From a virus (lineage: Duplodnaviria; Heunggongvirae; Uroviricota; Caudoviricetes), in the IMG/VR virus record IMGVR_UViG_2563366981_000002, positions 1 through 37,252 of that record: 37,252 bases of DNA; one strand, written 5' to 3'. A program made the position numbers and the translations under genes. Below, one piece after another: positions 1-34,397 of the stretch (positions are counted from its first letter, which is position 1; every line of letters begins with the position of its first letter). The notes beneath the pieces are model-generated. The model was not told the DNA's origin and searched no databases. It was given only the letters and a program-made list of their open reading frames with translations.

Positions 1-1053
1 TTACGGGGTAATGCCAACCGCTGCCGCCACTTTGTCGCCACTTGGCAGCGTTGCCAGAGGATTGAAACGGAGCGCCGTTTCCAGATGATCCGGTGCCAGA
101 TGTGCGTAACGCATCGTCATTTTTATATCGTGATGTCCGAGAATTTTTTGTAAGGCCAGGATGTTTCCACCCGACATCATGAAGTGCGCTGCAAACGTAT
201 GGCGCAGAACGTGTGTGAGTTGACCGCGAGGGAGCACGATAGACGTTTTTTCCATCACGGATAAAAATTGAAAATAGCAGTCTGTGAAGAAATTGAACCC
301 ATCAAGCGCCATGATCTCTTCGTAAAGCTCTTTACTGATAGGGATGCTTCTGTTTTTCTTCCCCTTCGTTCTTACAAAGGTAATTCGGTATTTGGTCACC
401 TGTGAACGAGTAAGATTTACGGCTTCTCGCCAGCGTGCGCCTGTGCTTAAGCATATCTTAACTACCAGTGCCAGAATTGGGTCCTGACGTTTGCAATCAG
501 CCAGTAATTCAACAATCTGCTCATGGGTAAGCCATGCCATCTCTTTTTCTGCGATGGTGAATTTTCGCATGTTCTCCAGTGGGTTCGGATACGACCATTC
601 GCCCAGGCGGGATAGTTCGCTAAAAACACTACTAAGATAGCTTTGCTCCAGGTTAATGGTGACCGGGCTTGCTCCTTTCTTCCATTTTTCGCTGAAGTAG
701 ATCTCTCCTGTCAGGCGTTTATCTCGATAGTGGGCAAACATTTTAGAGGTGAGATCGGTTGCAAGGGGATTGCCCAGAGCGTCAACTATCAACAGCAATT
801 TGTCATAGACATGCTGCCCAGCTGTCAGAGATTTACCATGTAGTTTGAACCATAGCTCAACCACGTCTTTCAGTGTTCGACGATCCACTGATTCACCCAG
901 CCAGGGCTTTGCTTCGGTTTCTTCCATCGTGTGACGCTCAAAAGCCAGAGCTTCACCTTTGGTGGCGAATTGTTTACGCACACGACGTCCACTACGTCCC
1001 GCGGGGTAACATTCGCATAGCCATTTTCCTGTGGTGAGTTTTCGTACTGCCAT
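1..1053 (-). CDS. int: tyrosine integrase (P2-type)
   Basis: 350-aa ORF; C-terminal catalytic signature (...HVLRHTFAAHFMMSGGNILALQKILGHHDIKMTMRYAHL...); first gene at prophage left end; RBS GGAGGG 9 nt upstream of ATG. Confidence 0.9.
   Translation of the reverse strand: MAVRKLTTGKWLCECYPAGRSGRRVRKQFATKGEALAFERHTMEETEAKPWLGESVDRRTLKDVVELWFKLHGKSLTAGQHVYDKLLLIVDALGNPLATDLTSKMFAHYRDKRLTGEIYFSEKWKKGASPVTINLEQSYLSSVFSELSRLGEWSYPNPLENMRKFTIAEKEMAWLTHEQIVELLADCKRQDPILALVVKICLSTGARWREAVNLTRSQVTKYRITFVRTKGKKNRSIPISKELYEEIMALDGFNFFTDCYFQFLSVMEKTSIVLPRGQLTHVLRHTFAAHFMMSGGNILALQKILGHHDIKMTMRYAHLAPDHLETALRFNPLATLPSGDKVAAAVGITP
19..40. repeat. putative attachment core copy (attL), inside the 3' end of int
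   Basis: CGCTGCCGCCACTTTGTCGCCA; matches 34398-34419 with one mismatch. Confidence 0.55.
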
Positions 1054-1142: not shown

Positions 1143-1748
1143 TTATCTTTCTACTTCCCAGCGTAGAGATTGCATTAACATAGCATAAATATTGAACAGG
1201 AAAGTTTTTAAAGTTAATACAAGGAACACTGCACTGCTTCCTACGAGTATATATAGTATTTGAACTCCAACAACTTTAGTGCAATGAGAAAACATTAAGG
1301 CTCTGAGTAATTTTGTAGCCAATCCATTTTCTTGCCCGAAAAGAAGGACTAAAAGATAGATAACAGACCAAAATATGAAATATATAAATACTCTCATAAA
1401 TACACCATAAACATATTTTAAGTAACTTATCCCGTATAATGGATGCTTATACTCCATTAATGAAAGGAAAAGTTCAGGTTTATTTATGGTTGCAAATATT
1501 GTAAATCCAGTAATTAAAAAACCTAATGTTGTTGTAGTGAATCCGAATACTAAAGGTGTCCATTGTCTAATAGATGAAATTAACTCTGGTGATGAAGATA
1601 GACAAAAAGCATTAATAGATAATAATATCACTAACAATAATGTGAAATAAAAGTCAAATGAATTGACCTTTATTTTTTTAGTTAATTTGTAAACATCATG
1701 CAAAGATCGCTCTTTGGTCAGATCTTCTGGGTTGAATGTATATTTCAT
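1143..1748 (-). CDS. accessory small membrane protein (about four predicted TM helices); function unknown
   Basis: 201-aa ORF with four hydrophobic segments; AT-rich; start 1 nt after the stop of the upstream ORF (translational coupling). Confidence 0.7.
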   Translation of the reverse strand: MKYTFNPEDLTKERSLHDVYKLTKKIKVNSFDFYFTLLLVILLSINAFCLSSSPELISSIRQWTPLVFGFTTTTLGFLITGFTIFATINKPELFLSLMEYKHPLYGISYLKYVYGVFMRVFIYFIFWSVIYLLVLLFGQENGLATKLLRALMFSHCTKVVGVQILYILVGSSAVFLVLTLKTFLFNIYAMLMQSLRWEVER

Positions 1749-1749
1749 A

Positions 1750-2799
1750 CTATAGCCACCTAGAAATTATTGATGTTAACTTGGAAAAAATTTTAGTATA
1801 ATCTTCACGTTCTGGAATAATAATATTTCCTTCATCCTTTAATTCTGTGAATGCAGAATACGCCTCTTGAGCAGCTCTTTCCAAATCAGAACTAAGTTGT
1901 GGCCTTGATGCTTTTAGAGTAAAACTATCATTATTCCCTGATAGCCTTGCTCCGTGTTCATCTTTACCACTGATAATTACTTTAGAGTTGGCCATTCGGG
2001 TTGCACTTGTTGTTTTTTGAATGACGGCCTCAGAATTTAAACCATCTTCATTTTTATTTGTGTATACTAATTGAGCTTTACTACTATTAAGTTCTTCTTT
2101 TTCTTGTTCAATTTTCCTCCAGAAGCCATCAAGAGATATATTTTCACTATTTGTTGGCAATAACTCAATTGATAATCTATTAACAACAGAAAAGAGTTCA
2201 ACAAAATTGCTCAATGATCTTGGGTCTGTTAAGGGGGTAACCCGTAATTTGGGGGCTCCTAGTTTACGATAAATATCTTTTTTATACAGTCGATCAATGT
2301 ATGATTTTTTCTTTCTAATTCTTTTATTTTTTTTTACTTCGTAATCCACAAAAGAATTATATCGCTGTGCAAGGCAATACTTGCTAGTATTTTCAAATTC
2401 TTCTAGGGTAGGGGCTCCAGAAACCTCTTTGCAAAGCATTAATCTGTGCTCATTAAGCATAAGAATAAAAATAGAGCTGGGGTGACTTTCTAGCGTCCTG
2501 TGATCTCGAATTAATTGACCATCTTGAAATATTTGATCTCGTTTAAATATGGTCTTTTTTATAATGCGGCCACACAATGCAATTGTTGGAACTATAGGAC
2601 CAATAAAATCTGAATCTGTAGTATCTAACGTAATAATTTTTGTGTCAGTAAAGAAATATTCTGTATCTTTAAATTTTCTAACGTATTTTTGTGCGAAAAA
2701 TGAAGGAAAAACAATGCAATCAAAAGCATCTAAGAGAACTTTGTCCTCTCCAAAATTTAAGGTATAGTTTGCAAATTCAATAGTTTTCGTAAAGCTCAT
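1750..2799 (-). CDS. accessory soluble protein, 349 aa, no motif recognised
   Basis: Long ORF, AT-rich, Lys/Asn/Ile-rich; start 2 nt after the repressor stop; between repressor and int where P2 has no gene. Confidence 0.7.
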   Translation of the reverse strand: MSFTKTIEFANYTLNFGEDKVLLDAFDCIVFPSFFAQKYVRKFKDTEYFFTDTKIITLDTTDSDFIGPIVPTIALCGRIIKKTIFKRDQIFQDGQLIRDHRTLESHPSSIFILMLNEHRLMLCKEVSGAPTLEEFENTSKYCLAQRYNSFVDYEVKKNKRIRKKKSYIDRLYKKDIYRKLGAPKLRVTPLTDPRSLSNFVELFSVVNRLSIELLPTNSENISLDGFWRKIEQEKEELNSSKAQLVYTNKNEDGLNSEAVIQKTTSATRMANSKVIISGKDEHGARLSGNNDSFTLKASRPQLSSDLERAAQEAYSAFTELKDEGNIIIPEREDYTKIFSKLTSIISRWL

Positions 2800-2801
2800 T
2801 G

Positions 2802-3743
2802 TTAAACCCTTTTTCTAATTATTCCTTTAACTTTATTATTAAATTCCAAATCTTCTTTATCGCATTCAAAGCTATATTTTGTGTTTTCAACGCGGATGCG
2901 ATTGTTTGGAAGTTTAAATATGTCTCTAAAAGTAAATTCTCCGTTAATAGATACTAACCATAGACCATCGCTAAGATACTCCTCTTTGCTAATGATATAT
3001 GAATCATTTGCGGAATTAACTATATAGGGATGTTTTAGATTTTGAGGTAAAATTTCGCTCGAAACGATTAATTCTCTTTGATCAGTAAGTTTGCCGTCAC
3101 GTAGATCATAGCAGTCTAATGTAAGCAACCCACTTAGCTTTGTTTGATTGGAATGCCCCTTACCAAAAGATAACCACTCGAGAGACACTCCTGTTTCTAA
3201 ACAGCATTGGATGATCCAGTCTGCCGGAAAAATGTCTCGCATGTATCGTGTAGCTAATGTGCTTTTTGAGATACCAAGGTGATCGGCTAAGGCTTGGCGC
3301 GTTTTGTAACCGTAAGCCTTAACAATTCGCTCTATTGCTGCTTTACCCCCTCGAGTGAAATCCATGTGGTTTTCATTATCGAACTTTATCGTGGGGGTGT
3401 GAACTTCATTGCAAAATTCATCTGCAGACTGTTTTTCAGCATGCCGTTCTGGCGAAGGAACTGGCACTCCTTCTTCAGCATCTAAACCAAATGCTAACCA
3501 TTCGATTGATGCGCCAGTTTCCATTGAACATATAACAACCCAATCAGCAGGGAAGGTATCGCGTGCATATCTGTTAGCCATTGTACTTTGTGAAATACCA
3601 AGGTGGTTACAGAATGCTTGGCGTGATTTGAAACCATAGGCCATGAGTATTCTCTCAATGACTTTTTGCCCTCCTCGATTCTGCATGACCATGGCTTTCA
3701 GATGATCTTCAATATGGCGAAATGTGATTTTATTAGTTGACAT
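2802..3743 (-). CDS. CI-type immunity repressor with tandem duplicated HTH domain and S24/LexA-like C-terminal domain
   Basis: Two internal repeats (…ERILMAYGFKSRQAFCNHLGISQSTMANRYARDTFPADWVVICSMETGASIEWLAFG / …ERIVKAYGYKTRQALADHLGISKSTLATRYMRDIFPADWIIQCCLETGVSLEWLSFG) resembling the 186 CI N-terminal fold; C-terminus has GEFTF motif like lambda CI; divergent from Apl/Cox-like gene. Confidence 0.75.
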   Translation of the reverse strand: MSTNKITFRHIEDHLKAMVMQNRGGQKVIERILMAYGFKSRQAFCNHLGISQSTMANRYARDTFPADWVVICSMETGASIEWLAFGLDAEEGVPVPSPERHAEKQSADEFCNEVHTPTIKFDNENHMDFTRGGKAAIERIVKAYGYKTRQALADHLGISKSTLATRYMRDIFPADWIIQCCLETGVSLEWLSFGKGHSNQTKLSGLLTLDCYDLRDGKLTDQRELIVSSEILPQNLKHPYIVNSANDSYIISKEEYLSDGLWLVSINGEFTFRDIFKLPNNRIRVENTKYSFECDKEDLEFNNKVKGIIRKRV

Positions 3744-3765
3744 ATTCTTTATGCGAACCTATTCT
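3737..3765 (+). promoter_or_regulatory. putative rightward early (lytic) promoter
   Basis: TTGACA (3737-3742), 17-nt spacer, TATTCT (3760-3765); the -35 overlaps the repressor start codon. Confidence 0.3.
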
Positions 3766-3831
3766 CCGTTTTGTGAAGTTTTCGTCACGATTAATACCGG
3801 CTCACCACAAGCCAATAGGAGATGTTGCATC

Positions 3832-4053
3832 ATGACCCCTAACATTTCAATAACTCTGAATACGCCGCACGTCACAATTGAGCGTTATAGCGAACTTACT
3901 GGTCTTTCTATCGACACAATCAACGATATGCTGGCTGATGGTCGCATCCCTCGTCATCGCCTTCGGAAAGACAAGAAAAGAGAAAAGGTAATGATCAACC
4001 TTGCTGCTCTTACCGTTGATGCACTTACTGATTGCAATGTTGTATTCAACTAG
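3832..4053 (+). CDS. Apl/Cox-like excisionase / switch regulator
   Basis: 73-aa basic protein from internal ATG of ORF 3724-4053; first rightward gene facing the repressor. Confidence 0.6.
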
Positions 4054-4085
4054 TTCCATTTTGGGATACATCAGGGGTGTCGACT

Positions 4086-4595
4086 ATGTTTGATTACCAA
4101 GTTTCCAAACATCCACATTTTGATGAAGCCTGTCGTGCATTCGCGCTGCGCCACAACCTGGTGCAACTGGCAGAACGTGCTGGCATGAATGTGCAGATTC
4201 TGCGGAACAAGCTGAACCCGGCTCAACCTCATTTATTAACCGCACCAGAAATCTGGCTGCTTACCGATCTGACTGAAGATTCAACGCTGGTAGATGGTTT
4301 TCTGGCTCAGATTCACTGCCTGCCATGCGTACCGATTAATGAGGTGGCAAAAGAGAAACTGCCACATTACGTCATGAGTGCAACCGCAGAGATCGGGCGT
4401 GTTGCTGCAGGTGCGGTATCTGGCGATGTAAAAACCAGTGCAGGTCGTCGTGATGCTATCAGCAGCATTAACTCTGTTACACGACTGATGGCGCTGGCTG
4501 CTGTTTCATTGCAGGCCCGTTTACAGGCTAATCCTGCGATGGCGAGTGCAGTTGATACCGTGACTGGCCTCGGTGCTTCATTCGGTTTGCTGTGA
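4086..4595 (+). CDS. CII-like lysogeny establishment regulator (186 type)
   Basis: 169 aa from ATG at 4086 ([24 protein letters not shown]...); position after Apl-like gene; recalled resemblance to 186 CII. Confidence 0.65.
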
Positions 4596-9541: not shown

Positions 9542-9561
9542 TACTGTAATTATAAACAGTG
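9542..9561. promoter_or_regulatory. LexA (SOS) box
   Basis: TACTGTAATTATAAACAGTG = CTGT-N8-ACAG; a weaker second dyad follows at about 9560-9577; lies upstream of ATG 9603. Confidence 0.6.
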
Positions 9562-9602: not shown

Positions 9603-9791
9603 ATGCAGGACTATTTTTTGGAGTCTTTGAAGCTCCAGCGCATTGATTTTTTTCTTAAGCTTGTAGCGGCTAGTGAGTGTAGTGATGAAGAGAAGGGGCT
9701 GGCTTTGCAGTGGGTTTCTGAACTAACAGATGAACTCATGGCAAAAATCAGAACCCACGAATACAACCGCTCAATGGATGTCATCAGTTGA
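9603..9791 (+). CDS. small SOS-regulated protein (possible Tum-like antirepressor; inference)
   Basis: 62-aa ORF with AGGAGG RBS directly downstream of the LexA box; the longer 9501 start is rejected because the box lies inside it. Confidence 0.5.
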   Translation: MQDYFLESLKLQRIDFFLKLVAASECSDEEKGLALQWVSELTDELMAKIRTHEYNRSMDVIS

Positions 9792-9801
9792 GGTGACTTT
9801 T

Positions 9802-10035
9802 ATGCGCATTGAAATAATGATCGATAAAGAGCAGAAGATTAGCCAGTCTACCCTGGACGCCCTTGAATCCGAGCTTTACCGTAATCTGCGCCCCCTGTAT
9901 CCCAAAACGGTAATTCGTATCCGCAAAGGTAGCTCTAACGGTGTGGAACTGACCGGACTGCAACTGGACGAAGAAAGGAAGCAAGTGATGAAAATTATGC
10001 AGAAGGTGTGGGAAGACGACAGCTGGCTGCATTAA
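9802..10035 (+). CDS. DinI-like protein
   Basis: 77-aa protein (MRIEIMIDKEQKISQSTLDALESELYRNL...WEDDSWLH) with DinI-like length and motifs; GAGGTG RBS. Confidence 0.8.
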   Translation: MRIEIMIDKEQKISQSTLDALESELYRNLRPLYPKTVIRIRKGSSNGVELTGLQLDEERKQVMKIMQKVWEDDSWLH

Positions 10036-10157
10036 GAAACGTTGCTGGCGTCTGAACTTGCTTCTGGCGTCAGCAAGGTTGAACAACGAGCTGTGCGAGG
10101 CGTTAGTTGATATAGTATCAATATATAAAAGGTTTCTCGAAGTTTTAAGGTAAGGTT

Positions 10158-10877
10158 ATGACAACTATTAACAAGCATGGGTTATCTAGAACAATTCCTG
10201 AACCTGTAAAACTGGAGGTAAGGCAGCGCTGTGGCTTTGGTTGCGTTGTTTGTGCTTCTCCCATTGTTGAGTATGAGCATGTAATTCCCACATACGCTGA
10301 TGCAAAGGAGCACTCTCCAAATGCAATAGCACTACTTTGTCCTACGTGCCATGCGAAAGTAACGAAACGTCTTTACTCTAAAGAGAAAATAATTAAAGCA
10401 ATGGAATCTCCTGCAGCCTTACAAAAAGGGAATGTGGCCGATATATTGGACTTTTCTGATAGGCATCCAACAATAATATTTGGTGGTGCGACGTTTGAAT
10501 CCTGTACTGTACCAATAATGTTTCAAAATGAGCCATTGTTAACCATTGAAAAAGAAAATAATGCTTTTCTTATTTCGGGTAAATTTTACGATAGTCAAGG
10601 TATTGTTAATCTTGAATTAATTAAGAATGAGTGGGTTTGTAGTGCAAGGCATTGGGATGTTCAGGTTGTTGGTCCTAGAATAACTATTATAGAAAAAAGG
10701 AAAGGTCCTCGTTTAATTATTAAAGTTGATGCGCCTGAAAGATTGATTGTGGAAAGATTAGATATGTTGGTTAAGGGGACTCGGATTGTAGGAGACGAAC
10801 ACAAGCTAAGAGTCGGTCCACATCAATTTCACAACTGTGGAGTTTCAAATTGCAATATTGGTTTCTGCTTTGGCTAA
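10158..10877 (+). CDS. HNH-endonuclease-domain protein with unknown C-terminal domain
   Basis: N-terminal CGFGCVVC...EYEHVIP...N...CPTCH (CxxC, EH, N, CxxCH HNH signature); markedly AT-rich; adjacent to cos-like motif. Confidence 0.75.
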   Translation: MTTINKHGLSRTIPEPVKLEVRQRCGFGCVVCASPIVEYEHVIPTYADAKEHSPNAIALLCPTCHAKVTKRLYSKEKIIKAMESPAALQKGNVADILDFSDRHPTIIFGGATFESCTVPIMFQNEPLLTIEKENNAFLISGKFYDSQGIVNLELIKNEWVCSARHWDVQVVGPRITIIEKRKGPRLIIKVDAPERLIVERLDMLVKGTRIVGDEHKLRVGPHQFHNCGVSNCNIGFCFG

Positions 10878-10990
10878 CTGGAGGTTGGAAAAAGACCATT
10901 TCCTGTAAGCTGAGTATTTCGTACATTTTTGCCAACGCATGTCTATGTCGCATGAAATCGCATGATCGTTTGAGGATCGTTTTTGCTGAT

Positions 10991-11018
10991 GCCCGCCAGA
11001 GCTGGCGGGCTTTTGCTT
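10991..11018 (+). terminator. rho-independent terminator after the HNH gene
   Basis: GCCCGCCAG / CTGGCGGGC stem followed by TTTTGCTT. Confidence 0.5.
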
Positions 11019-11059
11019 ATGTCATGCAGGTGCATGAAAACCACTACACAAAGCGGGCA

Positions 11060-11078
11060 GGCGTGGCGGGGATACGAG
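11060..11078. other. cos-like motif (putative cohesive-end site)
   Basis: GGCGTGGCGGGGATACGAG followed by GCGCGC; resembles the recalled P2/186 cohesive-end sequence; correct position and orientation relative to the portal gene. Confidence 0.4.
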
Positions 11079-11166
11079 CGCGCGCAATAGGGTTATGTAC
11101 AATAAATTTTTGACGATCTTCGAGTGTTATTAGCTTGAGGCTGTCAGGGAAAATGAATACAATAAG

Positions 11167-11198
11167 AAGCGCCTAGCAGAATGTTACTAGGCGCTTCG
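11167..11198. terminator. perfect hairpin between converging transcription units
   Basis: GAAGCGCCTAG, 10-nt loop, CTAGGCGCTTC; T-rich flank on the minus strand. Confidence 0.35.
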
Positions 11199-11230
11199 AA
11201 TATATAACCTGTATGACTTTCTTAACCTAC

Positions 11231-11338
11231 TTATCTTTTTGATTTCTTCTTCGTATCATCGTGATCGAATACTTGGCGGGTAGGCGGCTTGCTGGGTGGT
11301 GGCGGCGGCGGTAAATTAGATTTCTCATTTTTGCTCAT
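11231..11338 (-). CDS. polyproline micro-protein C (35 aa)
   Basis: MSKNEKSNLPPPPPPSKPPTRQVFDHDDTKKKSKR; AGGAAAA RBS; ATG overlaps the stop of micro-ORF B. Confidence 0.4.
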   Translation of the reverse strand: MSKNEKSNLPPPPPPSKPPTRQVFDHDDTKKKSKR

Positions 11339-11462
11339 CTTTATTTTTCCTATTTTTTGGATCATTGCCATAGCTTTCTCTAACTAACCGAGTGATTGGC
11401 GGTTTAGGTGGTGGTGGTGGTGGTGGTGCTTCATTTTTTTTAGGATTTTTGTGTTCGGTCAT
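11325..11462 (-). CDS. polyproline micro-protein B (45 aa)
   Basis: MTEHKNPKKNEAPPPPPPPKPPITRLVRESYGNDPKNRKNKDEQK; AAGGA RBS 8 nt upstream; paralogous to A and C. Confidence 0.45.
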   Translation of the reverse strand: MTEHKNPKKNEAPPPPPPPKPPITRLVRESYGNDPKNRKNKDEQK

Positions 11463-11577
11463 TTTTATCGTCCTTTCTGTCTCTTCGTAGTTGCCTTGCT
11501 TTTGAATCATCTTCAATAACGATCCTTCTTGCGGGTGGAGTAGGCTGAGGAGGTGGTGGCGGTAACGGTTTGGTCAT
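11440..11577 (-). CDS. polyproline micro-protein A (45 aa)
   Basis: MTKPLPPPPPQPTPPARRIVIEDDSKARQLRRDRKDDKNDRTQKS; AGGAG RBS 7 nt upstream; TAATG overlap with the membrane protein gene. Confidence 0.45.
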   Translation of the reverse strand: MTKPLPPPPPQPTPPARRIVIEDDSKARQLRRDRKDDKNDRTQKS

Positions 11578-12227
11578 TAAGTTCTCCTGACATTTTCAAT
11601 AGGTATTATCAAATAGTTAGGGGCGTTATTTTTCCGCGGTGATGCTGCATCTAAATCAGCTAAAAGAAATATGACTACTGCTGCGATAATTGGAATCCAT
11701 GACCAGACAAGATACTTTGTTGACTCAAATAGTTTACTGGAACGTTCTTCATTGATATTACTGTTCCAGCTAGCACACTCTCTGATTTCTTGATGAATAA
11801 ACTCCCAAAGTTTATTATCAGGGTTATAACTTTCATCGTATGTAAGTCCATTGTCATCGCAATATTTTTTATATTTCACTTCGTAACTAATCAGATCTAT
11901 GTGATAATCATGCAATGCTTTAGGTGCAGGGCAATACTTAAATTCATTTCCCCATATGACTTGTTTCAACAGAATTGATGATACAAGAACTAAGCCAAAT
12001 GAAATTGCGGTACATAAAAATACTAGGCAAGCTAGCCTTGGGTGGGATTCATAAGATGTGTTTTTGGCGAGATAAGTGAGTATAGTTGCGGTAATGACAA
12101 CTAATCCGAATTCGGCTTGAGCGCGAGTATGTATCTTGTCTTTATTCTCAATTTCTGAGAAATAAAGTTTTTCGTAAAATTCTAATGCTTTATCCTTTTT
12201 CATTTTTAGATTCAGTGTGATGTCCAT
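11577..12227 (-). CDS. accessory membrane protein (three predicted TM helices)
   Basis: 216-aa ORF, AT-rich, hydrophobic segments at about residues 40-55, 65-87 and 175-195; lies between the cos-like motif and the portal gene. Confidence 0.7.
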   Translation of the reverse strand: MDITLNLKMKKDKALEFYEKLYFSEIENKDKIHTRAQAEFGLVVITATILTYLAKNTSYESHPRLACLVFLCTAISFGLVLVSSILLKQVIWGNEFKYCPAPKALHDYHIDLISYEVKYKKYCDDNGLTYDESYNPDNKLWEFIHQEIRECASWNSNINEERSSKLFESTKYLVWSWIPIIAAVVIFLLADLDAASPRKNNAPNYLIIPIENVRRT

Positions 12228-12248
12228 GTATCAAACATATCACGATAA

Positions 12249-12278
12249 CAAAAAAAGAAAAGCCGCAATTCTGCGGCT
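12249..12278 (-). terminator. rho-independent terminator downstream of the portal gene
   Basis: AGCCGCA / TGCGGCT stem, then TTTTCTTTTTTTG on the minus strand. Confidence 0.5.
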
Positions 12279-12296
12279 GTTGGGAAGCTAATCTAG

Positions 12297-13325
12297 CTAT
12301 AATTCGTAATTTGTGAACCCTATCGCGTTTTTATCCAGCCATTTATTAAGCTCCTCAAAGCGTCTCTGAAGCGGAATAAGTTCATTACGAACGAATACGC
12401 GGCTGGCCTTCTCCACATCCCCAAATCCCCCAACATTATTAGGCATAATCCCCATCATTTGCGGTGGCACACGATGCGCCGCCATCATGTCATCCCGGCT
12501 CACGTTCTTGATGTTTAGAAACTCATCCTTCGCCGCGACTTCTGACAGAGGAATGATCTGAAGCCCATCCTTTTTGCCGTTAGGCGAGTACATAAACAGG
12601 TTGCGGAAGTTACCCGGTCCTTTGGCGCTTTTCATCGCATTGCGGAGGTTGTTCACATCCTCCTGGTTCTGCGCGGCATCGGTCATGTACATGATGAAGC
12701 CTGCATGACTACCGTTAATGTAATACTTCCGGCGGAACAGCGTGGCGGACTCGTTGAGCAAAGCGGATGGGATGGCAGAAAGATAGCCGGGCAGGCCGTA
12801 GATCTCCTGATTAATATCCGGTTCCATCAGATGAAAAATGCTGCCTTTCGTGAACTGATACGGCTGGGTTGTCATACCGTATTGCACAAACCAGTAGGTA
12901 TCCAGGTCTAACCCGCGTCGGGTATATTTTGCCAGAGCAGGCTCAAGGGCGATAACTTCACCGAAGCGGTTCGTGCGTTTCTCCAGATAAGCGTTACCAA
13001 ATACCAGATAGTCCTGCACAAAACGTGAAAAAGCCTGCTGGCTGAGCAGCGGGTGAGGGATGTAGGTACTGGTCAGTATGTTGCATTTCACCGCAATTGG
13101 TGAACTGTGATGCACGGCAGCGCGGAAGGTGCGCGCCAGTCCGTCAAAGCTTACTGGCGGCTCATACCAGTGATCTGTCTGTACGCATTCCACATAGTCC
13201 AGCAGTTCTCGGCGGTCCAGAACAGGAACGGGATCGCCGAAGCTGAATGCTTCGGCTGTAGTTTGACTTTTAAGCTGGATCTGTTTCGTCGCCGAAGCGC
13301 GGTTCTTCTTACTCTTTCCCATCAA
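12297..13325 (-). CDS. Q: portal protein
   Basis: 342-aa ORF, leftward, cos-proximal, ATGA-coupled to terminase; P2 Q-like position. Confidence 0.9.
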   Translation of the reverse strand: MMGKSKKNRASATKQIQLKSQTTAEAFSFGDPVPVLDRRELLDYVECVQTDHWYEPPVSFDGLARTFRAAVHHSSPIAVKCNILTSTYIPHPLLSQQAFSRFVQDYLVFGNAYLEKRTNRFGEVIALEPALAKYTRRGLDLDTYWFVQYGMTTQPYQFTKGSIFHLMEPDINQEIYGLPGYLSAIPSALLNESATLFRRKYYINGSHAGFIMYMTDAAQNQEDVNNLRNAMKSAKGPGNFRNLFMYSPNGKKDGLQIIPLSEVAAKDEFLNIKNVSRDDMMAAHRVPPQMMGIMPNNVGGFGDVEKASRVFVRNELIPLQRRFEELNKWLDKNAIGFTNYEL

Positions 13326-32991: not shown

Positions 32992-34088
32992 ATTTCAGCT
33001 CTGAACTGCTTAACAAAGGCAACAAAACTCCGGCATTCAGCATCAGTATTGAAGGCAGGGATATCACCACTGTGCTGGACAACCGCCTGATGGGGCTGAC
33101 GCTGACGGATAACCGGGGATTTGAAGCGGACCAGCTTGATCTGGAGCTGGACGACGCCGATGGAAAAATCGTGCTGCCGCGCCGTGGTGCGGTCATTACG
33201 CTGGCGCTGGGCTGGAAGGGGCAGCCGCTTTTCCCGAAAGGGGCATTCACGGTGGACGAGATTGAACACACTGGCGCACCGGACCGCCTGACTATCCGGG
33301 CGCGAAGTGCTGATTTTCGTGAAACGCTGAATACCCGCCGTGAAAAGTCGTGGCACAAGACCACCGTTGGGGAAGTGGTGAAGGAAATAGCTGCGCGGCA
33401 CAAACTGAAGATGGCATTGGGTAAAGACCTGTCAGATAAACCCGTGGAACATATAGACCAGACCAATGAGAGTGACGGCAGTTTTCTGATGCGGCTGGCG
33501 CGCCAGTACGGTGCTATTGCGTCGGTGAAAAATGGCAATCTGTTATTCATCCGACAGGGGCAGGGTAAAAGCGCCAGTGGTAAACCACTACCGGTTATCA
33601 CTATCACACGTAAGGACGGCGACAGTCACCGCTTTACCATGGCAGATCGCGGAGCTTACACGGGCGTAATTGCCAGCTGGTTGCATACCCACGAACCCGC
33701 GAAGAAAGAAAGCACCACGGTGAAGCGTAAGCGCAGGACTAAGAAGCAGAAGAAAGAGCCGGAAGCGAAGCAGGGCGATTACCTGGTGGGTACGGATGAA
33801 AACGTGTTGGTACTTAATCGCACCTATGCTAATCGGAGTAACGCCGAACGGGCAGCGAAAATGCAGTGGGAACGCCTGCAACGCGGCGTTGCGTCATTCT
33901 CGCTACAACTGGCGGAAGGGAGGGCAGATCTCTACACGGAAATGCCAGTGAAAGTCAGTGGCTTTAAACAGCCGATAGATGATGCGGAATGGACCATTAC
34001 GACTCTGACGCATACCGTCAGCCCGGATAACGGTTTTACGACCAGTCTGGAGCTTGAAGTGAGGATTGATGATTTCGAAATGGAATGA
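32988..34088 (+). CDS. D: tail protein D
   Basis: 366-aa ORF at the P2 gpD position. Confidence 0.85.
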   Translation: MNFSSELLNKGNKTPAFSISIEGRDITTVLDNRLMGLTLTDNRGFEADQLDLELDDADGKIVLPRRGAVITLALGWKGQPLFPKGAFTVDEIEHTGAPDRLTIRARSADFRETLNTRREKSWHKTTVGEVVKEIAARHKLKMALGKDLSDKPVEHIDQTNESDGSFLMRLARQYGAIASVKNGNLLFIRQGQGKSASGKPLPVITITRKDGDSHRFTMADRGAYTGVIASWLHTHEPAKKESTTVKRKRRTKKQKKEPEAKQGDYLVGTDENVLVLNRTYANRSNAERAAKMQWERLQRGVASFSLQLAEGRADLYTEMPVKVSGFKQPIDDAEWTITTLTHTVSPDNGFTTSLELEVRIDDFEME

Positions 34089-34178
34089 TTCTTCGCAATG
34101 GAGAACTTTTAAGTTTGCAAAATGGAATAATGCGGTATCATTATTGTGAATTTAGCAAAAATGGGGAGAACTCGAAAA

Positions 34179-34397
34179 ATGATGATTTGCCCACTGTGTG
34201 GAAGTGCCGCCCATACTCGCAGCAGTTTTCAGGTATCTTCATTGACCAAAGAGCGTTACAACCAGTGCCAGAACATTAACTGCAGCCATACTTTTGTTAC
34301 CCATGAAACTTTTGTTCGTTCAATTGCAACGCCAAAAGAGTCTAATCCGGTTCAGCCGCATCCAATGAAATCAGGACAGGTGGCGCTCTCTCTTTGA
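34179..34397 (+). CDS. ogr: late gene activator, Ogr/Delta zinc-finger family
   Basis: MMICPLCGSAAHTRSS...CQNINCSHTF C2C2 zinc-finger pattern; last phage gene before the right repeat. Confidence 0.8.
   Translation: MMICPLCGSAAHTRSSFQVSSLTKERYNQCQNINCSHTFVTHETFVRSIATPKESNPVQPHPMKSGQVALSL

Follow-up and report, generated by a model that had tools for sequence, protein, structure and literature searches.

The cI gene of the prophage described here encodes a repressor of the coliphage 186 type that, judged from sequence comparison, carries on one polypeptide two DNA-binding heads derived from two different CI lineages. The gene is an open reading frame (ORF) at positions 2802-3743 of a 37,252-nucleotide stretch of DNA, referred to here as the window (IMG/VR virus record IMGVR_UViG_2563366981_000002, Caudoviricetes). 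The window is a P2/186-like (Peduoviridae) prophage sited between the Escherichia coli genes rcdA and ybjL, and the record NZ_CP196312.1 is identical to it around the cI region. In the composite picture proposed here, to which we assign a probability of about 0.5, the two heads would divide the operator sites of a mosaic lysogeny switch between them, and induction would proceed through an antirepressor.

A two-headed repressor in the cI slot

By its sequence and its place, the ORF is the immunity (lysogeny) repressor of a 186/Fels-2-like prophage. This identification follows from the gene's occupation of the cI slot and from its being the only CI-type helix-turn-helix (HTH) gene in the window. 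The position is canonical, on the lysogenic side together with int and opposite cox-cII across the pR-pL switch, and it matches the annotated map of 186. When a hidden Markov model (HMM) of the head domain was run against the six-frame translation, no second copy of the domain was found in the window outside this gene, and no other repressor gene is annotated in RefSeq for the identical prophage. An earlier note on this DNA, made from the letters alone, had proposed an immunity repressor, and its position and its standing as the sole CI-type HTH ORF in six frames bear that proposal out; a separate conventional repressor gene elsewhere in the prophage, which the note had named as the finding that would speak against it, was looked for and none was found.

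Pfam recognises two stretches of the Phage_CI_repr family (PF07022; E 2.5e-57 for the whole protein) and one of Phage_CI_C (PF16452) at residues 213-305 (E 1.3e-19). Alignment of the N-terminal 110 residues against the remainder of the protein by BLASTP pairs residues 23-86 with residues 131-194, without gaps and with 41 of 64 positions identical (64%, E 3e-33), so that the repeat of the head is real. The paralogous CI-type HTH repeats that had been noticed at about residues 20-85 and 125-192 are thus present, at 23-86 and 131-198, and alignment did not support the alternative of a single domain followed by an unrelated linker, both stretches being PF07022 heads. All characterised 186-type CI proteins carry one head per chain, a rule from which this protein departs. 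Its best solved relative, coliphage 186 CI, aligns with residues 136-309 only, corresponding to head 2 and the C-terminal domain (C-domain).

An AlphaFold2 model of the monomer, built from a 34-sequence alignment, consists of three separately folded beads, namely two five-helix bundles (residues 25-85 and 133-193) and a beta domain (206-310), with a short helix at residues 13-20 preceding the first bundle. The linker between the heads has a predicted local distance difference test (pLDDT) score below 50 at residues 90-124, and the predicted template modelling (pTM) score of the whole model is 0.38; in this predicted model no packing between the domains is fixed.

Chimeric origin of the gene and of its switch

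Comparison with single-head proteins points to a separate ancestry for each end of the protein. Over residues 1-86 the protein shares 83% identity with the N-terminus of a 208-residue single-head CI from Salmonella (P0054), whose gene occupies the cI position in its own prophage. Residues 127-313 match a 187-residue single-head CI from Kluyvera intermedia (P0038) over its entire length, at 61% identity and beginning at its first methionine, and from this alignment M127 of the present protein is a former start codon. Taken together, these comparisons indicate that the gene is a complete single-head CI gene, comprising head 2 and the C-domain, that was extended N-terminally by the head of another CI lineage.

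The DNA follows the same division. From position 3367 down to 1003 the window matches the Kluyvera locus with 72% identity over 2.4 kb, a match that spans head 2, the C-domain and both downstream genes and runs into int, and the Kluyvera match resumes at 3785-3850, covering cox and the cox-proximal intergenic DNA. From 3777 to 3495 the window is instead 76% identical to a 208-residue-type single-head locus (L091). The linker DNA between these blocks (3368-3494) has no blastn match in either parental-type locus. The 94-bp intergenic region between cI and cox is itself a mosaic, in which the cox-proximal 50 bp are of Kluyvera type and a 29-bp block on the cI side, bearing the -10 of the candidate promoter pR, is of the 208-residue type (25 of 29 positions identical).

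A local tandem duplication was considered and ruled out, as each head is nearer to the heads of other proteins than to its neighbour and the DNA junctions have been mapped. Of the earlier description of a tandem-duplicated DNA-binding domain, the two paralogous heads therefore stand and the duplication does not, since two CI lineages were joined by recombination.

A promoter-like element (TTCACA-17-GATAAT, 10/12, at 3363-3403 on the minus strand) ends 9 nt short of the M127 codon. An internal start at M127, which would yield a short isoform of 187 residues, was examined as a candidate and rejected: the codon has no Shine-Dalgarno sequence, and M127 is kept only in the nearest relatives. A near-leaderless transcript from the promoter-like element, giving the short isoform, is conceivable from the sequence.

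Conservation and distribution of the two-head layout

The mean identity of 33 double-head homologues to the present protein is 81% in head 1, 75% in head 2, 60% in the N-terminal extension (residues 1-22), 29% in the C-domain and 18% in the linker. The recognition helix of head 1, SQSTMANRYARD, is identical in the Salmonella single-head protein P0054, and that of head 2, SKSTLATRYMRD, is identical in single-head CI proteins of Hafnia, Yersinia, Brenneria, Rahnella and Klebsiella. Head 1 groups with other first heads in 48 of 49 cases and head 2 with other second heads in 46 of 49. This pattern indicates that the two-head architecture is old and maintained, with strong purifying selection on both heads and neither of them decaying. 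Both heads look functional by their sequences, with the function of the matching single-head CI proteins, whose genes lie at the cI position, itself deduced.

The layout is widespread. The 313-residue protein belongs to a 98%-identity cluster of 215 member sequences, and two heads are found in 50 of 121 proteins when the 120 best clusters at 90% identity are taken together with the query. These approximately 50 clusters span 285-330 residues and come from E. coli, Salmonella, Klebsiella, Enterobacter, Citrobacter, Kosakonia and Edwardsiella. Among 5426 complete E. coli genomes, 41 carry the two-head N-terminus at a DNA identity of at least 80%, and 11 carry the full gene; the gene is also present in Klebsiella phage 4LV2017 at 98.7%.

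More distantly, 27 of 144 head-bearing proteins among the top 150 representatives at 50% identity are two-headed, a share that is biased upward by the use of a two-head query. These representatives include proteins of Hafnia, Citrobacter and Shewanella. In most of them the two heads are only 27-49% identical, compared with 73-94% identity to heads in other proteins, some of the single partners in the latter comparison being short fragments; the full-length comparison with P0054 and P0038 is accordingly the strongest evidence for fusion that the sequences offer. A few proteins resemble true internal duplications, such as a Shewanella protein with heads that are 70% identical. By these comparisons, the two-head layout has arisen more than once.

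Three proteins from this search (P0254, P0212 and P0220) display other arrangements: one of the two-headed representatives, of 335 residues, combines two PF07022 domains with a bona fide Peptidase_S24 domain, and the other two (484 and 521 residues) contain five or six HTH_3 domains without a C-domain. In the literature, no relevant publication on tandem PF07022 domains or two-HTH 186-like repressors was found; in Nilsson et al. (2011) the only mention is of couplers that are longer in some CI proteins.

In the CI genes of loci L004-L102, the helix S-[KQ]-S-T-[LM]-A-[NT]-R-Y-x-R-D is near-invariant, being shared by proteins of Xenorhabdus, Photorhabdus, Yersinia, Hafnia, Klebsiella and others. 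A conserved recognition helix joined to a C-domain that has diverged to approximately 29% identity is the inverse of the lambdoid pattern. With the recognition helices conserved throughout the family, immunity specificity may reside elsewhere than in lambdoid phages.

The C-terminal domain and self-cleavage

By structure, the C-domain belongs with that of 186 CI. In a Foldseek search, the modelled domain superposes on the 186 CI C-domain (2FKD) with a template modelling score TMt of 0.91 and a root-mean-square deviation of 1.6, at a sequence identity of approximately 28%. The next matches are the C-domains of LexA and UmuD' (E 2e-5 to 1e-2), including the LexA structures 3K2Z (E 2e-5) and 1JHE and 8GMS (both E ~1e-3), and on this basis the label S24-like is right for the fold. 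At the level of sequence, Pfam returned no match to Peptidase_S24 (PF00717) at E <= 0.01, a PDB profile search found 186 CI alone, and no homology to lambda CI or LexA was detectable by Pfam, the PDB profile search or hhalign. The protein thus belongs by sequence to the 186-type CI family (PF07022 plus PF16452; PDB 2FJR/2FKD), outside the S24 protease family of lambda CI and LexA, and the earlier assignment of an S24-like C-terminus holds for the fold and fails for the family.

The motifs on which that assignment was based are present, as INGEFTFRD (residues 266-274) and NDSY (246-249). The hhalign comparison with lambda CI is insignificant (E 0.24), though its top alignment does place R273 on the lysine of lambda EFTFKK, in agreement with the proposed replacement of the catalytic lysine by arginine. 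Across 34 double-head homologues this column holds 23 arginines and 11 lysines, and the column of S248 holds 10 isoleucines, 8 threonines, 6 serines, 3 valines, 3 leucines and others, with no conservation of serine. The hinge (residues 186-212, VSLEWLSFGKGHSNQTKLSGLLTLDCY), whose mean identity across double-head homologues is 7%, contains no Ala-Gly or Cys-Gly cleavage site. With no PF00717 match, no conserved Ser-Lys dyad and no Ala-Gly in the hinge, the domain is not regarded as a protease, and self-cleavage is unlikely on sequence grounds, as the earlier note had anticipated. A non-cleavable C-domain combined with induction by Tum is ordinary for the 186 CI family and is not peculiar to the present gene.

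Candidate operators in the switch region

The features of the switch are listed in Table 1 together with those of the gene and of other parts of the prophage. The element at 3737-3765 would by analogy with 186 be the lytic promoter pR. Its -35 hexamer overlaps the start codon of cI, in a region whose DNA also matches the 208-residue-type locus, and a pR-like element (with -10 AGAATA and -35 TGTCAA when read in the cI sense) is kept in both the double-head and the 208-residue-type loci. The three hexamers around it share one orientation and lie 29 and 20 bp apart. In the 208-residue single-head loci L091 and L092 the same array is found as [AT]TCACA in the cI sense, with the 20-bp spacing flanking the -10, and the three hexamers would by this analogy be CI sites that were inherited with head 1.

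Table 1. Positions of the repressor gene, its domains, candidate regulatory elements and neighbouring features in the window.
Feature	Positions	Strand	Details
int	1-1053		lysogenic operon, with cI
Two low-GC cargo genes (349 aa; 201-aa predicted membrane protein)	1143..2799	(-)	1750-2799 and 1143-1748, respectively
cI	2802..3743	(-)	313 aa, stop codon 2802-2804; two HTH heads plus 186-type C-domain; PDB 2FJR E 1.8e-28
C-terminal oligomerisation domain, residues 213-313	2805..3107	(-)	186 CI C-domain family, S24-like fold, low GC
Head 2 (N2), residues 131-198	3150..3353	(-)	recognition helix SKSTLATRYMRD; M127 codon at 3363-3365
Inter-head linker, residues 87-130	3354..3485	(-)	disordered, hypervariable
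Head 1 (N1), residues 23-86	3486..3677	(-)	Pfam/HMM; recognition helix SQSTMANRYARD
N-terminal extension, residues 1-22	3678..3743	(-)	common to 208-aa single-head CIs; predicted helix 13-20
Three candidate CI sites around pR	3723..3777	(+)	TGTGAT 3723-3728, TGCGAA 3752-3757, TGTGAA 3772-3777
Candidate lytic promoter pR	3737..3765	(+)	-35 TTGACA 3737-3742, spacer 17, -10 TATTCT 3760-3765; consensus scan 10/12
Two candidate sites between pR and pL	3783..3810	(+)	CGTCAC 3783-3788, TCACCACAA 3802-3810; reversed relative to pR array
cox/apl-like excisionase-repressor, first gene of lytic operon	3832..4053	(+)	phrog_575, E 9.6e-32
FR-position element	4052..4068	(+)	AGTTCCATTTTGGGATA; directly 3' of cox stop codon; same place as annotated 186 FR ATTCACTTTATGTGAAT
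cII (186 CP76 family), lysogeny-establishment activator	4086..4595	(+)	PF06892, E 3.2e-42
LexA box	9544..9559	(+)	CTGTAATTATAAACAG; overlaps -10-like TATACT; place of 186 p95 LexA site
Split tum-like SOS operon	9603..10035	(+)	62-aa ORF 9603-9791 (candidate antirepressor), DinI-like ORF 9802-10035
Upstream region of ogr/B-like late activator	34073..34168	(+)	putative CI sites, from analogy to pB of 186

The two candidate sites between pR and pL, 20 bp apart, lie in the Kluyvera-type half of the intergenic region, and the Kluyvera locus contains sites of this orientation only. From their sequence context they could be sites for CI, bound by head 2, or for Cox, inherited in either case with the lineage of cox and head 2. 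In 186, the three pR operators are two helical turns apart, and the DNA over pL is weakly contacted and wraps on the CI wheel (PMC3675496). A two-turn array composed of two types of candidate site would fit this wrapping picture, and the change in operator geometry that had been expected from two heads per chain is plausible.

The element at the FR position is kept in approximately 50 loci despite diverged flanks, with the general form GTTC[CGA]AT[TA][TC]TG... and a length of 15-17 bp, and KL-type loci have it as the clean palindrome GTTCAATTATGAGAAC. It may overlap the -10 of the CII-activated promoter pE. A recognition code in which HTH residue 2 (Q or K) would correspond to base 4 of the FR half-site was considered and rejected, as several K-type single-head loci have TTCCA.

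At the other end of the prophage, the region upstream of the ogr-like gene (34179-34397) contains AAATGGAA exactly at 34078 and 34120, weaker variants at approximately 34094 (GCAATGGAGA) and 34154 (GCAAAAATGGGGA), and TTGTGAAT after a -10 of sequence TATCAT. The 8-mer AAATGGAA occurs 6 times in the window compared with 1.9 expected, and three of the copies are at FR- or pB-equivalent positions. This upstream region is near-identical, with two differences, in the Klebsiella phage ST11-OXA245phi3.1 (L090), in which CI is only 52% identical. By position it would be the equivalent of pB of 186, which is repressed by CI. A search for generic repeats in 3650-4150 returned short families of two or three copies only.

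A LexA box and a split tum-like operon

Inactivation of CI in coliphage 186 is brought about by Tum, an antirepressor under LexA control that blocks operator binding (PMC3121763; NC_001317 annotation). In Fels-2 and PSP3 the tum gene is split in two, and in PSP3 the upstream half carries the antirepressor activity (PMC3121763). The corresponding place in the window holds the only exact occurrence of CTGT-N8-ACAG, followed by a split operon of the same kind, in which the 62-residue ORF is 98.4% identical to STM2728 of Fels-2 and the DinI-like ORF shares 41% identity with residues 71-145 of 186 Tum. Induction through a separate SOS-controlled antirepressor, as had been suggested earlier, fits this LexA box ahead of a Tum-like operon.

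The 62-residue protein is 98-100% identical across phages whose CI proteins share essentially only the surface of the head, and the head is therefore the likely target of the putative antirepressor. Targeting of the head may also account for the near-invariance of helix 3 across genera.

Proposed mechanism and rival explanations

In the proposed mechanism, the C-domain would dimerise and, by analogy, oligomerise like that of 186 CI into a wheel of seven dimers, so that each dimer would show four heads rather than two. Head 1 would bind the three pR sites inherited alongside it and probably also the sites at FR and at the ogr promoter. Head 2 would bind the opposite-orientation sites between pR and pL that came from the other parental lineage, resulting in stronger wrapping of the pR-pL DNA, and may broaden immunity so that it covers the second phage lineage as well. 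CI would not be cut by RecA; rather, cleavage of LexA would release the 62-residue Tum-like antirepressor, which would titrate the heads and block DNA binding. Both cargo genes would be co-transcribed with cI from the lysogenic promoter. A further-reaching version is more tentative, and we put it at well below even odds: that the assembly is a hetero-bivalent wheel, a 14-mer displaying 28 heads of two specificities on a composite switch derived from two immunity types, which could immunise against both lineages, the layout having arisen repeatedly through head shuffling in the Gammaproteobacteria.

Several observations weigh against a division of sites between the heads and against the induction route as proposed. 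The sites assigned to head 2 fall where 186 holds the direct repeats of Apl, and for this reason the second array may belong to Cox. Operators of the 186 A type (TTCAC-N5-GTGAA with at most two mismatches) number 24 in the window compared with 17.8 expected, with none in the switch, and the palindrome TTCCA-N3-TGGAA, derived from the FR and ogr-promoter elements, is not enriched either (21 compared with 18.3 expected in the window). None of the candidate operators in the window reaches statistical confidence, the GTG[AG]/[TC]CAC marks being short. Covariation between the type of HTH residue and base 4 of the FR half-site is not strict, which leaves no ground for claiming a recognition code. 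Head 1 alone might suffice, given that single-head phages of the 208-residue type carry both pR-type and FR-type elements. Lastly, the 62-residue ORF has no detectable similarity to the N-terminal half of 186 Tum, and its role is thus deduced from its position and from PSP3.

If head 1 does suffice, the protein could be a dual-immunity repressor, in which head 1 runs the phage's own switch and head 2 is kept to repress superinfecting 186-like phages of the lineage with the K-type helix, by which exclusion would be broadened. The helix of head 2 is indeed identical to that of many single-head CI proteins of other genera; head 1 is of the 208-residue lineage, as are the FR element and the core of pR, such that it could serve all of the phage's own sites; and the slot between cI and int bears defence-type cargo in relatives (GmrSD_N+HEPN, nuclease). 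However, the half of the switch nearest cox, which has oriented sites of its own, is of the head-2 lineage and invariant in all double-head loci, which suggests a role for head 2 in cis, and the family-wide conservation of the recognition helix blurs the basis of immunity specificity. We consider it rather unlikely. About as improbable, in our estimate, is that only one head binds DNA, the other serving the Tum-like antirepressor or Cox as a docking site or decoy, or tuning induction through an additional dimerisation contact. The constancy of the 62-residue protein among phages with only the CI head surface in common would be expected of such a docking head, 186 Tum does block operator binding (PMC3121763), and in the AlphaFold2 model a flexible tether leaves head 1 free as a separate bead. 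Yet both recognition helices are complete and match those of single-head CI proteins, the heads are 75-81% conserved, and a pure docking module needs no intact helix 3.

The earlier note had also allowed that the protein might chiefly regulate the downstream two-gene cassette rather than prophage immunity. In favour of this, cI and the cassette are 2 nt apart, low GC content is common to the cassette and the C-domain, and the type of C-domain is co-inherited with the cassette. On the other hand, the prophage is complete and 186-like, its cI slot, facing cox-cII, is taken by this gene with no other repressor gene present, and the same two-head N-terminus is found with entirely different cassettes; regulation of the cassette as the main function is accordingly very improbable, and the cassette is better regarded as co-transcribed cargo that moves with the C-domain. 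Hardly credible at all is an artefact, in which a recent frameshift, or an error in sequencing or assembly, merged two adjacent genes. M127 does coincide with the first methionine of a complete single-head CI, but the linker contains no stop codon or ribosome-binding site, and the open frame recurs in independent assemblies, being conserved in approximately 50 clusters of many genera, in the 11 complete E. coli genomes and in several phage records, by which merged genes and a recent frameshift were ruled out. The division of sites between two functional heads remains the preferred reading.

Cargo genes and other parts of the prophage

The two cargo genes downstream of cI are packed 2 nt and 1 nt from their neighbours. 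The GC content of the part of cI that encodes the C-domain is approximately 0.30, as in these two genes, compared with approximately 0.44 in the heads. Their products are 77% and 76% identical to the pair that follows the Kluyvera single-head CI gene (L093), and three single-head CI proteins with a C-domain like that of the present protein (Kluyvera L093 and the metagenomic L097 and L098) are followed by the same pair, encoding a protein of 349-359 residues and a 201-residue membrane protein. The pair has no match in PADLOC and none in the Pfam scan; a precomputed match to DUF4747 is listed for the 349-residue protein. It may constitute an uncharacterised system expressed in lysogens. Double-head CI genes with other C-domains bear other cargo, including GmrSD_N+HEPN and an ATP-dependent nuclease. 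As the type of cargo follows the type of C-domain, exchanges of cargo at the cI-int slot appear to use breakpoints inside cI, near the junction of head 2 and the C-domain. The integrase-to-primase interval has been listed as a minor defence hotspot of P2 (PMC13586616).

A second slot, between the replication gene and tum on one side and the portal gene on the other, extends from approximately 10100-13000 onward in the window and corresponds to the classical tin/old defence hotspot of P2. According to the annotation of the near-identical prophage, it encodes a DUF4145 protein, two hypothetical proteins and a small protein with a nucleotidyltransferase domain. The window and the near-identical prophage record are not colinear throughout, ogr lying approximately 566 bp to the left of its predicted place.

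Significance and comparison with known systems

As a model of bistable switching by a repressor, the chief alternative to lambda CI is the CI of phage 186, whose seven-dimer wheel wraps and loops the DNA. A natural two-head variant offers a ready-made test of how the number of heads, the length of the tether and the orientation of sites affect wrapping, cooperativity and immunity specificity, while the chimeric gene and switch illustrate how one recombination step can create new immunity types. Conserved heads combined with a fast-diverging, cargo-linked C-domain suggest that immunity specificity may sit elsewhere than in lambdoid phages, and the exchange of defence cargo appears to use breakpoints within cI. 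Should only one head work, the finding would amount to no more than a hitherto unremarked arrangement of domains within a well-known family.

Among characterised systems, the protein is closest to coliphage 186 CI, with which it shares the families of head and C-domain, the absence of a protease dyad and an element at the FR position after the cox stop codon; both phages also have, at the same place after the replication gene, a Tum-type operon preceded by a LexA box. Unlike 186 CI, it has two heads per chain, from two lineages, separated by a disordered linker of 40 residues. The A-type operators of 186 (ATTCAC-N5-GTGAAT), which are found at pB, FL and FR in that phage alongside three different sites at pR, are not present above chance, and the candidate sites form oriented arrays and are not clear palindromes. 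In addition, tum is split, with an N-terminal half unrelated in sequence to that of 186, and defence-type cargo is present between cI and int.

The single-head CI proteins of the Fels-2, SopE-phi and PSP3 type (187-210 residues) are close homologues of each half of the protein, and their phages have the same split tum operon, but the present gene joins one head of each type and is served by a chimeric pR-pL region. With lambda CI, LexA and UmuD the similarity is limited to an HTH head followed by a beta-rich C-domain of the same fold class, in which the EFTF[RK] strand resembles EFTFKK of lambda. In contrast to these proteins, there is no PF00717 domain, no conserved serine and no Ala-Gly site, and arginine or lysine occupies the position of the lysine; induction is expected via an antirepressor, unlike the RecA-stimulated autocleavage of lambda CI and LexA.

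Two DNA-reading modules on one polypeptide have been engineered in the single-chain 434/P22 repressors. Natural proteins with two HTH motifs or two domains include Wmk of a Wolbachia prophage (PMC12889037) and a monomeric mycobacteriophage repressor (PMC9283540). Like all of these, the two-headed CI would in principle be suited to non-palindromic or composite operators. Those proteins, however, belong to other HTH families and are monomeric or have no oligomerising wheel domain, whereas the present protein combines its two reading modules with a C-domain of the 186 type.

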